Shown one piece after another: positions 46,990 to 64,000 of a stretch of DNA of 64,000 bases. The DNA comes from an uncultured Acidobacteriaceae bacterium (GTDB taxonomy: Bacteria; Acidobacteriota; Terriglobia; Terriglobales; Acidobacteriaceae). Positions within the stretch are counted from its first letter, which is position 1, and each line of letters begins with the position of its first letter. Location: contig CAYOVU010000162.1 of assembly GCA_964407505.1 (NCBI GenBank), forward strand, positions 27,247 through 91,246, written 5' to 3'. The position numbers and the translations under genes were made by a program. The notes below the pieces were generated by a model, which saw nothing but the letters and a program-made list of their open reading frames with translations, made no database searches and was not told the DNA's origin.

Positions 46990-49900
46990 ATGGCCGATCA
47001 GCCCACGAATGGGAATTCGAAGCCGGATGACTCTCGGTCCGGAAGAGCACCGACGGACCCGCCTCGCCTTACACTGCCCAAGGGCGGCGGATCCATTCAC
47101 GGCATCGGGGAGAAGTTTGCAGCCAATCCGGTGACCGGTACTGGCTCGATGACGGTTCCGATAGCGACAAGTCCCGGCCGCTCGGGATTTGGGCCGAGCC
47201 TCTCGCTCTCCTATGATTCCGGCGCTGGCAACGAACCCTTCGGTTTTGGCTGGTCCGTACATCTGCCGGCTGTGACGCGGAAGACGGACAAGGGTCTACC
47301 GCAATATAACGACAGCCAAAACTCCGACATCTTTCTGCTGTCGGGAGCGGAAGACATGATGCCCGCACTGGTCGAGAGCAAAGGCGAGTGGATCTTCGAC
47401 ATTTCCTCACGCTTGCTCTACGGCAACCAGTACAGCGTGCAGGGGTATCGGCCGCGGGTGGAGGGTCTTTTCGCTCGCATTGAGCGCTGGGCCAACACTT
47501 CCGACGGCTCCGACGTGTTCTGGCGGACAATCTCAAAGGAAAATATTACTACCTGGTTCGGGCAGAATGCCGAGAGCCGCATCGCCGATCCCTCCGATCC
47601 GACGCGCACCTTCAGTTGGCTGATCAGCGAGAGTTATGACGACAAGGGCAACGTCATCGCCTACGGTTATAAGGCAGAAGATTCGAGCGGCGTCGATCTC
47701 ATCCAGGCCAATGAGCGAAACCGAAGCACGCTTTCGCGCTCCGCGCAGCGTTACATCAAATACATCTACTACGGAAATCGCACTCCGTACTTTCCTGATC
47801 TGACGGCCGCCAGCGCGACGCCGCTGCCAACCGACTGGTGCTTCGAGGTGGTCTTCGACTACGGCGAGCACGATCCGCAAGTGCCCACACCAATTGAGAC
47901 TCGGCCGTGGATATGCCGGTTGGACCCGTTCTCGACTTATCGACCGACCTTTGAAGTGCGCATCTACCGGATCTGCCAGCGCGTTCTGATGTTTCATAAC
48001 TTTCCCGACGACCCGAGCGTCGGCGCGAACTGTCTGGTGCGCTCGACTGACTTGGTGCATGCATCGAGCCCGCCCGCCGATCCGACTCAGCCGTTCTACT
48101 CCTATCTGTTGTCGGCTTCGCAGTCGGGGTACACGCCGAATGGCGCTGGAGGCTACATTTCGAAATCTCTGCCGCCGATCGATTTCACCTACACCGAAGC
48201 CGTGATCGATGAGACGGTGCGTGATCTGGATCCTGAGAGCCAGATGAATTTGCCCAACGGCATGGACGGCTCGCATTATCGCTGGGTCGATCTGGACGGC
48301 GAGGGAGTTTCGGGAATCCTGACAGAGCAGGCAGGAGCGTGGTTTTACAAGGCGAATCTCAGTCCGGCCAATGTGCAATGGACTGGTCCCACAGCTCTCA
48401 CGCTGCCGCAGTTCGCGCCGGTGCGAACGGTAGAGCAGTTGCCTTCACTGGCTGCGCTCAGCGCCGGGCGGCAGCAGTTGCTGGGACTCTCCGGAGATGG
48501 CTTTCTCTCGCTGGTCCAGTTTGATGGGCCCACTCCCGGCTACTTCGAGCGGACGCAGGAATTCGGCTGGGAGCCGTTCATGCCGTTTCAGTCGATGCCG
48601 GTGGTGGACTGGAAGAATCCCAATCTGCGCTTCATTGACTTGACCGGCGATGGTTTTGCCGACGCGCTGATCAGCGAGGACGATGTCTTCTGGTGGCACA
48701 ACTCGCTCTCGACCGAGGGCTTTGCCAAGGCGCAACGTGTACCGCAATCGCTCGATGAGGAAACCGGTCCGCAGTTGGTCTTCGCCGACGGAACGGAGTC
48801 GATTTTTCTGGCCAACATGTCAGGCGATGGGCTAACTGATCTGGTACGGATTCGCGCCGGTGAAGTGTGTTACTGGCCGAACCTGGGCTACGGTCGCTTC
48901 GGTGCGAAGGTCACCATGGACGGCGTGCCGCGCTTCGACCGGCAGGAACTGTTCGACGCCCGCAGAATTCATCTGGCGGATATTGACGGCTCGGGGACTG
49001 CGGACATCCTCTACTTCGCCGCCGGCGAAGTTGACATCTACTTCAGCCAGTCGGGCAACAGCTTTGCGCAACGACGAGTCCTGAGTCACTTTCCCCTGAT
49101 CGACACAGCTTCTTCCGCTGCTGTGCTGGACCTGCTGGGCAACGGCACAGCCTGTCTGGTGTGGTCGTCTCCATTGACGGGAAACTCGCGGGCGCCGATG
49201 CGCTACATCGACCTGATGGGCGGAGTGAAACCGCACCTGCTGGTGGGTGTGGTGAACAACCTCGGCGCGGAGACGACGATATGTTATGCGCCTTCGACTA
49301 AGTTCTACGTGGCCGACAAGCTGGCGGGAATGCCCTGGATCACGCGGCTGCCGTTCCCGGTGCAGGTGGTGGAAAAAATCGAGACGGTGGACGTGATCAG
49401 CCGCAACCGCTTCGTGACCTGTTATGCCTACCATCACGGTTACTACGACGGCGTAGAGCGCGAGTTTCGTGGATTCGCCAGAGTCGATCAATGGGACACC
49501 GAGGACTTCGCGAGTCTCAATGCGTCATCTGCTCTGCCCCAGCCGACCAACGAGAACGCCGCGTCGAATGTTCCTCCGGTGCTGACCAAGACTTGGTTCC
49601 ATACAGGGTTCTTCTTTAATTCCGACGCGATTTCGACGCAGCTTCATTCGGAGTACTACAGCGAAGGTGATGCGGCCACAGGATTGGCTGGGCTGAACCC
49701 GGCGGAGACACAGGTTCTACTGCTACCTGATACTGTCCTGCCGACAACGGTGCTGCTAGCAGACGGAACACGGCTGGCCTACGACCTGTCGGGCGAGGAG
49801 ATGCGCGAGGCTTGTCGTGCGCTGCGCGGTTCGATGCTGCGGCAGGAAATATACGCGCTGGACGGCACGGAGGCAGCCGACCGACCGTACACGACCTCCG

Positions 49901-63713: not shown

Positions 63714-64000
63714 ATGCCGGTAATCAATCAGAGCTTTCACAACACGATAGACCAGACTGTCCGTCCCTACCAGACATACACCACGCAAGGCGTGTGGGTG
63801 CCGGCCTCGCCTGTCCTCTCGCTCAAGGAGAGCGTTGCGTATCAGTTCTACCCGTTTTTCCATCCCTACGTGGGACGCGATCGCGTCGCTATCCCCAACG
63901 TGACTCCTCCTCTGATGCTCTCACTCATCCAGCGCCTGCGGGAGGGCGGAGTTTCGGAACTGGAAGCTTCTGATACGCTCTACATGCCACAGCCGCAACC
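63714..64000 (+). CDS. hypothetical protein, N-terminal fragment (continues beyond the window); possibly a second A-component piece
   Basis: The ATG at 63714 lies 7 nt after a GAGGAG that overlaps the TcA-like stop codon (TGA 63700-63702). Open to the window end. Translation MPVINQSFHNTIDQ...VAYQFYPFFHPYVGRD... Confidence 0.5.
   Translation, partial: MPVINQSFHNTIDQTVRPYQTYTTQGVWVPASPVLSLKESVAYQFYPFFHPYVGRDRVAIPNVTPPLMLSLIQRLREGGVSELEASDTLYMPQPQ

Follow-up and report, generated by a model that had tools for sequence, protein, structure and literature searches.

A predicted toxin-complex operon with fused TcB-TcC, a two-gene TcA, and an exchangeable cargo cassette carrying an immunity-like gene in an uncultured acidobacterium

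Results

Four genes of a predicted Tc operon

We analyzed a 64,000-nucleotide stretch of DNA (the window) from contig CAYOVU010000162.1 of assembly GCA_964407505.1, an uncultured Acidobacteriaceae bacterium, and focused on positions 46990-64000, where four tightly spaced, co-directional open reading frames (ORFs) on the + strand resemble a toxin complex (Tc, or ABC) locus. In order, these genes encode a fusion of TcB and TcC (BC), a 125-aa protein, and two successive parts of a TcA protein (A-N and A-C; Table 1). An earlier note, made from the letters of this DNA, had proposed the Tc assignment, and Pfam domains of TcB, TcC, and TcA together with matches to the PDB sequences of TcdA1, XptA2, YenA2, TcdB2-TccC3, and TccC2 bear it out.

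For A-N, an alternative TTG start at 55300 would give a protein of 2800 aa; the ATG at 55357 has a good AAGGAG ribosome-binding site. A-C starts at ATG 63714 (not 63715), 11 nt past the A-N stop codon in another frame, and is preceded by GAGGAG. Read-through of a single stop codon between the third and fourth ORFs was rejected, as the two lie in different frames. A contig from the European Nucleotide Archive (ENA), ERZ27253777:k141_5038838 (here L006), matched the window over 17,011 nt at 100% identity and extended the locus, providing the complete A-C gene (L006:18358-22143, 1261 aa), after which come genes for a PAS histidine kinase, in convergent orientation, and an alcohol dehydrogenase. 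All four ORFs are uninterrupted over 20 kb.

Comparison of L006 with a related locus, L021, revealed similarity that begins 46 nt ahead of BC and ends 12 nt past A-C, with unrelated flanks on both sides. Because the similarity ends at the operon edges, BC, A-N, and A-C behave, as far as sequence comparison indicates, as one 20.6-kb module. Of the 946-nt spacer upstream of BC (46044-46989), only the last 46 nt were common to L021, with the remainder unrelated. This spacer has a low G+C content (0.48 versus 0.57 for the window) and contains a 30-aa mini-ORF resembling a signal peptide at 46115-46207 (MKTLLAASILSSVVPLIAVLTIPAAPGIPK). We found no sigma-70-like promoter in the spacer and no Rfam match in the window.

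Table 1. Features of the predicted Tc operon, in window coordinates where available
Feature	Position	Strand	Remarks
Conserved 46-nt leader, left edge of transferable module	46944..46989	+	blastn similarity to L021 (87.5%) starts at 46944
TcB-TcC (BC) fusion gene	46990..54885	+	2631 aa
SpvB domain, aa 46-338	47125..48003	+	PF03534, E 8.6e-110, whole profile covered
TcdB middle N (aa 710-838) and middle C (aa 941-1005)	49117..50004	+	PF12256, E 5.6e-32; PF12255, E 7.3e-27
Swappable cassette (cargo and small ORF), 1.46 kb	53880..55340	+	Only large block without L021 similarity
Autoproteolysis motif PVCMADRNGM, aa 2301-2310	53890..53919	+	Aligned with TccC2 PVSLQDENGL
Cargo (hypervariable region, HVR), 321 aa, aa 2311-2631	53920..54882	+	33.8 kDa, pI 8.9
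Conserved predicted toxin domain, 229 aa	54196..54882	+	53 homologues; all-alpha model
Small ORF	54898..55275	+	125 aa; begins 12 nt past BC stop
A-N (TcA part 1)	55357 (ATG)..63702	+	2781 aa
A-N VRP1 domain			aa 616-801 (2800-aa numbering)
A-N ABC_toxin_N domain			aa 2153-2276 (2800-aa numbering)
A-N Neuraminidase domain			aa 2306-2442 (2800-aa numbering)
A-C (TcA part 2)	63714..64000, cut by window end	+	Full gene 1261 aa

BC carries TcB and TcC hallmarks in one protein

BC matched the Pfam families SpvB, FG-GAP (PF13517), TcdB_toxin_midN, TcdB_toxin_midC, and RHS repeat, and these domains, from SpvB to RHS, lie on a single ORF, as the earlier note had read it. We found neither a signal peptide nor a PAAR domain in the protein. 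The N-terminus is of the TcB type, with SpvB, a beta-propeller, and the TcdB middle regions, and is followed by an RHS cocoon of the TcC type (DPxG ... PxxxxDxxG) and a variable cargo, with divergence between loci starting directly past the motif. The end of the BC core aligned with the PDB sequences of TcdB2-TccC3, TccC2, TccC3, and YenC2. The PxxxxDxxG autoprotease motif has been described previously (PMC7861908), and the final residue (664) of its TccC2 version is the end of the solved core. Upstream of this motif, SCDPMG of BC aligned with SADPAG of TccC2. Because both segments align with their TccC2 counterparts, both catalytic Asp residues appear conserved, and cleavage is predicted after M2310, which would free the 321-aa cargo. 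These findings identify BC as a predicted TcB-TcC fusion with every TcB and TcC hallmark.

TcA is divided between two genes

A-N matched the TcA-family domains ABC_toxin_N (E 7e-42), Neuraminidase-like (E 5e-25), and VRP1 (E 1e-5). From its N-terminus, the protein consists of beta-sandwich modules, a VRP1-like helical shell, a long additional region of helices and repeats, ABC_toxin_N, and the first neuraminidase-like part. Residues 2050-2359 of A-N aligned with TcdA1 857-1173 and residues 2153-2327 with YenA2 38-204, leaving approximately 1200 extra residues in A-N before the stretch that matches TcdA1 857. The complete A-C of L006 contains a full-length TcA_TcB_BD domain (aa 805-1099, E 3e-102) and aligned with the TcdA1 pore region (aa 236-631 with TcdA1 1748-2104), with XptA2 (aa 733-1100 with 2169-2537), and with YenA2 (aa 695-1106 with 953-1349). 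Its channel tip is typically hydrophobic (GFIPDFGINLEPMGVGATTTLGG).

Combined, A-N and A-C contain the helical shell, neuraminidase-like domain, pore helices, and TcB-binding domain of a TcA, with A-N carrying the shell, receptor, and neuraminidase-like parts and A-C supplying the pore region and TcB-binding domain. The predicted TcA is split into A-N and A-C, with a total of about 4040 aa. The 2781-aa protein, which had been called a TcA-like giant, does have TcA domains but is only part of the TcA. In the window, L021, and a third locus, L022, the two A genes lie 11-13 nt apart, and a ribosome-binding site is present at the gap. We regard it as very probable that these genes constitute a real Tc operon with a split TcA.

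Other features of the A proteins are less readily matched to classical TcA. A region of A-N that classical TcA does not have (aa ~1350-1650; window ~59400-60300) contains three degenerate tandem units of ~95 aa each, with motifs such as SFSYDSTTQIQSVTYTGLL, SLSYDAVGQLQWAGYRGVL, and QFSYSAASQTQTISCQGIL, which are too diverged for BLAST self-matches. A PA14-like stretch in A-N was suspected by eye, backed by a weak PA14 match in a Trinickia homologue alone; segment-wise Pfam scans of A-N and A-C yielded no further domains. In A-C, the 85-90% identity to L021 has a sole break at L006:20452-20672 (aa ~698-771; window-equivalent 65808-66028), a Ser/Thr/Gln-rich stretch of ~220 nt immediately preceding the hydrophobic channel tip. 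Because identity breaks there, the region beside the membrane-inserting tip appears hypervariable. A-C also continues for ~160 residues past the TcB-binding domain (aa 1100-1261; L006:21655-22143) without a family match, unlike TcdA1, in which the TcB-binding domain is the C-terminal end.

Cargo and small ORF form a swappable cassette

Similarity between the window and L021 was 87.5% at the DNA level up to 53879, absent from 53880-55340, and 85.3% from 55341 on, so that identity resumes 16 nt before the A-N start. At the protein level, the BC cores of the two loci were 89.9% identical and their cargos 20.6% identical. We observed the reverse pattern with L007, a more distant forest-soil locus, where the BC core was 48.8% identical to that of the window, the cargo 55.8%, and the last 200 aa 80%, and where a homologue of the small ORF is present. 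In the corresponding place (7830-9985), L021 instead encodes a cargo with a long glycine zipper at its end (WGMAIGGAEIGGTIGTFVGGPIGAVVGGLIGGVVGGIAGYISG), then an ankyrin-repeat ORF of 174 aa and an ORF of 155 aa labelled DUF8243 by the precomputed contig annotation; the cargo and ankyrin protein of L021 may be a membrane-depolarising toxin with an ankyrin-type immunity protein. L022 has a third cargo type and no small ORF. This third cargo is beta-rich and ends in ...SGYF, as outer-membrane barrels do.

G+C content at third codon positions was 0.70-0.72 for the scaffold genes, 0.66 for the cargo, and 0.56 for the small ORF. The locus shares two features with polymorphic toxins: a conserved scaffold that switches abruptly to an exchanged C-terminal toxin, and a small downstream gene that co-varies with toxin type, as L021 has both another cargo and other ORFs behind it. 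By this comparison of loci, the 321-aa C-terminal end of BC makes up an exchangeable cassette together with the 125-aa gene.

The cargo ends in a conserved all-alpha domain

The cargo consists of a Ser/Gly-rich linker, amphipathic repeats, and then the toxin domain, and it has hydrophobic helices. Its size and isoelectric point (pI) fall within the range translocated by Tc toxins, for which cargo pI has been discussed (PMC7861908). The N-terminal third is moderately hydrophobic with many small residues, and an alignment of the toxin domain (A1) contains the invariant residues N111, H114, W116, H117, H143, E144, D148, E155, Q159, N163, H164, D167, and D171. AlphaFold2 produced a confident all-alpha model (predicted local distance difference test [pLDDT] score, 90.7; predicted template modeling [pTM] score, 0.86).

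Foldseek searches of the PDB with this model returned nothing significant (best E 0.5), with helical membrane proteins (ExbB, TolQ, and MotA) on top, and a profile search of the PDB with the domain was likewise without a significant match, ZorA being found at E 0.31. These nonsignificant matches converge on the ion-conducting stator superfamily (MotA, ExbB, TolQ, and PomA at E 1.8-5; ZorA at E 0.31), which we regard as a lead only.

The 53 homologues of the toxin domain sit on Tc BC fusions, on ordinary Rhs C-termini, on an orphan Rhs C-terminal (Rhs-CT) module located behind a 1926-aa Rhs gene in a 5-Mb contig, and, in one case, on a fusion to eCIS_core (DUF4157). We infer from the comparative data that the cargo is a polymorphic toxin module whose site of action is at or within the cytoplasmic membrane or the cell envelope, perhaps as an enzyme having a His/Glu/Asp/Asn center or as a membrane-perturbing helical protein.

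The small ORF belongs to a family that accompanies the toxin domain

The small gene directly after the cargo had been noticed earlier, and synteny bears it out. We retrieved eight close homologues of the 125-aa ORF, and all four with examined genomic context sit between a BC fusion and a TcA. Eight aligned sequences, 49-74% identical, share 34 invariant columns, a clear sign in sequence of constraint on the ORF. Neither the ORF nor its family matched any Pfam or NCBIfam family, with Tox, Ntox, and Imm families included, and a profile search of the PDB with the family gave nothing usable (a GH43 blade at E 0.003). The profile of the ORF found 111 members among 1.84 billion representatives, most of them 105-170 aa in length with a signal peptide and a lipobox Cys just before the domain. 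Some of the Tc-linked small ORFs have a short amphipathic N-terminus in place of a signal peptide. The 125-aa protein is, by its profile relationships, a candidate cytoplasmic member of a small-lipoprotein family.

Scanning the toxin alignment against metagenome contigs yielded 59 loci, in which we classified the next ORF. Nearly always, the ORF after the toxin belonged to one of two small families. The family of the window's small ORF directly follows the toxin in nine further metagenomic loci (E 1e-38 to 1e-54), which include stand-alone and non-Tc toxins whose small ORF bears a signal peptide or lipobox; altogether, it follows the toxin in the window and in L007, L009, L010, L015, L023, L025-L027, L030, L031, L033, L035, and L080. 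The second family, ~125-aa lipoproteins with a GVGxFDWxWDG motif, follows the toxin in at least 30 loci and is likely a periplasmic immunity family, apparently undescribed. In loci with this second family (L014, L016, L032, and L037-L079), the motif reads Y.Y.VLPDGRIQP...GVGxFDWxWDGxxI, the toxin domain is of a short form, and the lipoprotein gene often overlaps the toxin stop codon. An hhalign comparison did not demonstrate a relationship between the two families, giving a probability of 37.5%, with signal peptides driving part of the score. BLASTP of the 125-aa ORF against ORFs downstream of the eCIS_core-fused and orphan toxins gave no match.

Orphan lipoprotein copies of the window's family were also detected in metagenome-assembled genomes (MAGs) of Verrucomicrobiota, Akkermansiaceae, and Hymenobacteraceae (Bacteroidota), with no toxin within 10 kb. 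A small ORF that co-varies with a toxin and has orphan copies elsewhere is the standard signature of toxin-immunity pairs. Parts of the small-ORF profile matched 7-16 times in tandem in the giant proteins P0208 (2032 aa), P0274 (1511 aa; "PKD domain-containing," Planctomycetota), and P0285 (2049 aa), and because of these tandem matches, the fold, or half of it, seems also to be used as a repeat unit in large proteins.

The operon layout recurs in a mainly soil clade

A search with the first 2100 aa of A-N retrieved at least 194 protein clusters, mostly from soil metagenomes. The best 120 of these 194 clusters all contained ABC_toxin_N and Neuraminidase but none contained TcA_TcB_BD, and nearly all were ~2440-2900 aa in length, with a few shorter and probably partial. 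Named sources include Candidatus Angelobacter, Bryobacteraceae, Terriglobia, a Burkholderiaceae MAG, and the isolate Trinickia symbiotica; the clade is mainly acidobacterial, with members also in Burkholderiaceae and Streptomyces. L021 and L022, with A-N proteins 89% and 58% identical to that of the window, have the same BC, A-N, and A-C order, and the Streptomyces locus L015 has BC, the small ORF, and then A. In L007, A is unsplit (3592 aa). The placement of BC before A, seen from the letters by the earlier note, is therefore recurrent, and the layout does differ from classical loci as claimed but is not a one-off: by these matches, it is the norm of a large, mostly soil clade that is apparently uncharacterised.

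The extreme N-terminus of A-N varies within the clade. The homologue P0102 has PG_binding_1 at aa 12-69 and P0124 has CarboxypepD_reg and a transthyretin-like domain, and about one-fifth of the listed A-N homologues (P0096-P0102 and others) start with the PG_binding_1 peptidoglycan-binding domain. Judged from such sequences, TcA proteins of this clade seem to start with an exchangeable module for targeting or anchoring.

Four window proteins (a LacI regulator, a benzoylformate decarboxylase, an acetate symporter, and BC) share 90%-identity clusters with MAG proteins of a Candidatus Sulfotelmatobacter sp. (Acidobacteriota, Terriglobia), in agreement with the acidobacterial host proposed earlier. 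The rest of the window is ordinary chromosome, encoding a nonribosomal peptide synthetase (NRPS) module, an M3 peptidase, a LysR regulator, transporters, UPF0182, the LacI regulator, an amidohydrolase, three OMP_b-brl_4/CarboxypepD_reg receptors, pentapeptide-repeat proteins, and one tetratricopeptide repeat (TPR) protein. The window contains no tRNA, and we found no integrase, transposase, lysis-cassette family, or component of a type VI secretion system (T6SS) among its ORFs of at least 150 aa scanned against Pfam, as the earlier note had stated for mobile elements. The NRPS module (condensation, adenylation, and peptidyl carrier protein domains) lies alone at the left edge (377-3604, - strand), and any cluster would extend outside the window. 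At 29929-37879, two pentapeptide-repeat proteins, one also with leucine-rich repeats, flank a 1125-aa ORF (32370-35747) that has no Pfam match.

Discussion

We interpret the locus as a functional four-gene Tc (ABC) operon of a distinct, mainly soil clade, located in the chromosome of an acidobacterium resembling Candidatus Sulfotelmatobacter and carrying a polymorphic toxin-immunity pair, a reading to which we assign a probability of roughly 0.7. By analogy with established Tc biology, A-N and A-C would assemble as an (A-N/A-C)5 pentameric syringe. The cocoon formed by BC would sever the 34-kDa cargo, keep it unfolded, and attach to the TcB-binding domain. Once the toxin had left the producer and bound a target cell, the channel would insert into the membrane, and the cargo would pass through it as a thread. 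The comparative data suggest the 125-aa protein as the cognate immunity protein; because it has no signal peptide, it would neutralise the toxin in the producer cytoplasm, before or outside encapsulation.

The operon combines features of several known systems. Like PTC3 of Photorhabdus luminescens (TcdA1, TcdB2, and TccC3; Type I), it encodes SpvB, TcdB middle regions, an RHS cocoon that contains an aspartyl self-cleavage site, and a variable cargo at the C-terminus, along with a TcA containing a VRP1-like shell, neuraminidase-like domain, pore helices, and TcB-binding domain. In contrast to PTC3, B and C are one gene ahead of A, A is two genes with ~4040 aa versus 2516 aa for TcdA1, the cargo is not an ADP-ribosyltransferase and has a small gene linked to it, and the host is an acidobacterium rather than an insect pathogen. 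As in YenTc of Yersinia entomophaga and other Type II (TcaA/TcaB) toxins, TcA stems from two co-assembling genes, and YenA2 aligned with both A-N and A-C. However, in the Type II pair YenA1/YenA2 the break immediately precedes ABC_toxin_N, and the second gene extends from this domain over the neuraminidase-like domain to the TcB-binding domain (PMC11435725), whereas in our locus A is split at a different point: the first gene retains ABC_toxin_N and the initial neuraminidase-like segment, with the break ~500 aa further on. The locus also differs from YenTc in the absence of chitinase genes and in having B and C fused and first.

The contrast with textbook loci that the earlier note drew was too strong, as BC fusions (PMC7861908) and a small Tc gene, tccZ (PMC9968953), were known before. 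A natural TcB-TcC fusion occurs in Burkholderia pseudomallei 1710b (ABA52082.1; PMC7861908); likened by description only, it also has B and C in one gene but belongs to another phylum, and the source mentions no cargo-linked small gene. In the largest survey, which covered 1608 Tc loci and left out natural BC fusions, Song et al. (2021) assigned 96.4% of TcC genes to Proteobacteria and stated that none of the Tc loci had immunity proteins (PMC7861908). As early as 2012, Zhang, Aravind et al. catalogued SpvB-Rhs polymorphic toxins that have immunity genes, describing a "TcdB/TcaC" class with SpvB, beta-propeller, RHS, and immunity genes in many phyla (PMC3482391). Members of that class, like BC, have an exchangeable C-terminal toxin and often an immunity gene next to it, but the authors presented the class as a route of export in which a signal peptide is usual and did not link it to TcA, whereas here a complete TcA is in the operon (PMC3482391). 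Overall, our locus is a predicted BC-first Tc operon in which the giant TcA is broken at a new place and the polymorphic cargo cassette includes an immunity-like gene. In the limited literature collection that we searched, we found no paper on Tc operons with immunity genes or on antibacterial Tc toxins.

Several observations weigh against our interpretation. The pore and TcB-binding part of TcA lies outside the window and was read solely from the identical metagenomic contig. The cargo and its toxin domain lack any PDB match and, whether searched as single sequences or as whole alignments, any match in NCBIfam or Pfam, with the Tox, Ntox, and Imm families of Pfam included. The AlphaFold2 model of the 125-aa protein was poor (pLDDT 63.9), and Foldseek with this weak model found nothing significant, a NigD-like immunity protein at E 0.6 not being evidence. 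No small ORF is present in the related loci L022, L024, L028, and L029, and a holin, endolysin, or spanin cassette was found neither in the window nor within 4 kb downstream. Finally, most family members carry a signal peptide, which is absent from the Tc-linked small ORFs. Because of this mismatch in compartment, a picture of the same immunity at the same site of action is not a direct fit.

That cargo and small ORF are a cognate pair seems to us highly likely. The role of the small protein is less certain; we lean toward immunity rather than chaperoning or another partnership. The 125-aa protein may instead be a cargo-specific helper, such as a chaperone for solubility or cocoon loading, or a Tc accessory similar to TccZ, which we consider a less probable but serious alternative. 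The absence of a signal peptide from the Tc-linked copies, the short amphipathic N-termini of some of them, and the hydrophobic helices in the cargo would all suit a helper, and co-variation with the cargo suits a dedicated chaperone equally well as an immunity protein. Furthermore, TccZ, a Tc-linked protein of ~127 aa in Photorhabdus and Pantoea that is tightly linked to tcC, has no assigned function (PMC9968953). TccZ is similar in size to our ORF, although the two were compared by description only; no retrieved homologue of the ORF carries the TccZ name, and the retrieved homologues with examined context are all BC-first. However, most family members are exported lipoproteins and many are orphans without a toxin nearby, which suits immunity genes and not cytoplasmic chaperones. 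Members of the family are also found after stand-alone toxins outside any BC fusion (L030, L033, and L035), where no cocoon loading is needed.

The Tc machine of this clade might be an antibacterial weapon that delivers an envelope-active toxin into competitors, or into bacteria and eukaryotes alike, with the orphan lipoproteins serving as defensive immunity genes of the targets. This possibility would account for the same toxin domain occurring on Rhs proteins and orphan Rhs-CT modules followed by periplasmic lipoprotein ORFs, a hallmark of interbacterial toxins, and for the orphan lipoprotein homologues in unrelated phyla. Cassette swapping with cognate small ORFs is also typical of bacterial arms races, and the peptidoglycan-binding N-termini of about a fifth of the listed A-N homologues would fit a bacterial target. 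We nonetheless consider an antibacterial role improbable, since no Tc toxin has been shown to act on bacteria and published Tc biology is anti-eukaryotic (PMC7861908). The producer's cytoplasmic copy of the small protein would not shield kin from incoming toxin, the window's own A-N has no peptidoglycan-binding domain, and membrane-active cargos would kill protists, fungi, and nematodes too.

A decaying locus, in which the TcA split is a frameshift or nonsense lesion and the operon is non-functional, was rejected as very unlikely. Classical Type I TcA is one gene, and genes are fragmented in some related contigs (L009, L012, and A-C of L021), but the fragmented examples are named "contig_NNN" and may be long-read assemblies with frequent frameshift errors. 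The split and its ribosome-binding site are conserved at the same place in loci that are 58-89% identical, a split is implied for ~120 listed homologues of uniform length, and the four ORFs in our locus are intact.

BC also resembles T6SS Rhs effectors of pairs such as Tse5-Tsi5 and RhsA-RhsI in its Rhs cocoon, the core end of which aligned with Tse5, in the predicted autoproteolytic release of a C-terminal toxin, in the small downstream gene (the cognate immunity gene in those pairs), and in the existence of orphan modules. It differs from them in lacking PAAR, VgrG, and a T6SS, in having TcB and TcA as the delivery module, and in the lack of an export signal on the producer's small protein. 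The notion that BC is an ordinary Rhs effector of a T6SS or contact-dependent system with unrelated TcA-like neighbours, to which a cargo domain common to ordinary Rhs proteins and the adjacent immunity-like gene might lend support, is effectively refuted by the full SpvB and TcdB middle regions of a BC N-terminus with neither PAAR nor prePAAR, by the absence of VgrG, Hcp, PAAR, and T6SS families from the scanned window ORFs and from 4 kb downstream, by the presence, within the same closely packed operon, of a gene that encodes a full TcB-binding domain, by the joint travel of BC, A-N, and A-C as a module, and by the recurrence of the order in L007, L021, L022, and L015.

Tc toxins have been studied almost only in insect and human pathogens. 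The locus described here adds a large soil clade with a fused BC, a giant TcA with a new split, variable TcA N-terminal modules, and cargos behaving like polymorphic toxin-immunity cassettes shared with antibacterial Rhs systems. An immunity-like gene after the cargo is a layout typical of bacterial warfare toxins and has not been reported for classical insect-killing Tc toxins. The locus also provides a new predicted toxin fold with a candidate inhibitor, as well as larger natural Tc scaffolds for protein-delivery engineering, and it opens to direct testing what Tc toxins do ecologically, and which targets they have, outside animal hosts. Should an antibacterial function prove true, the split TcA would breach the bacterial envelope, and Tc toxins would join the T6SS, contact-dependent inhibition (CDI), the type VII secretion system (T7SS), and extracellular contractile injection systems (eCIS) as interbacterial weapons.

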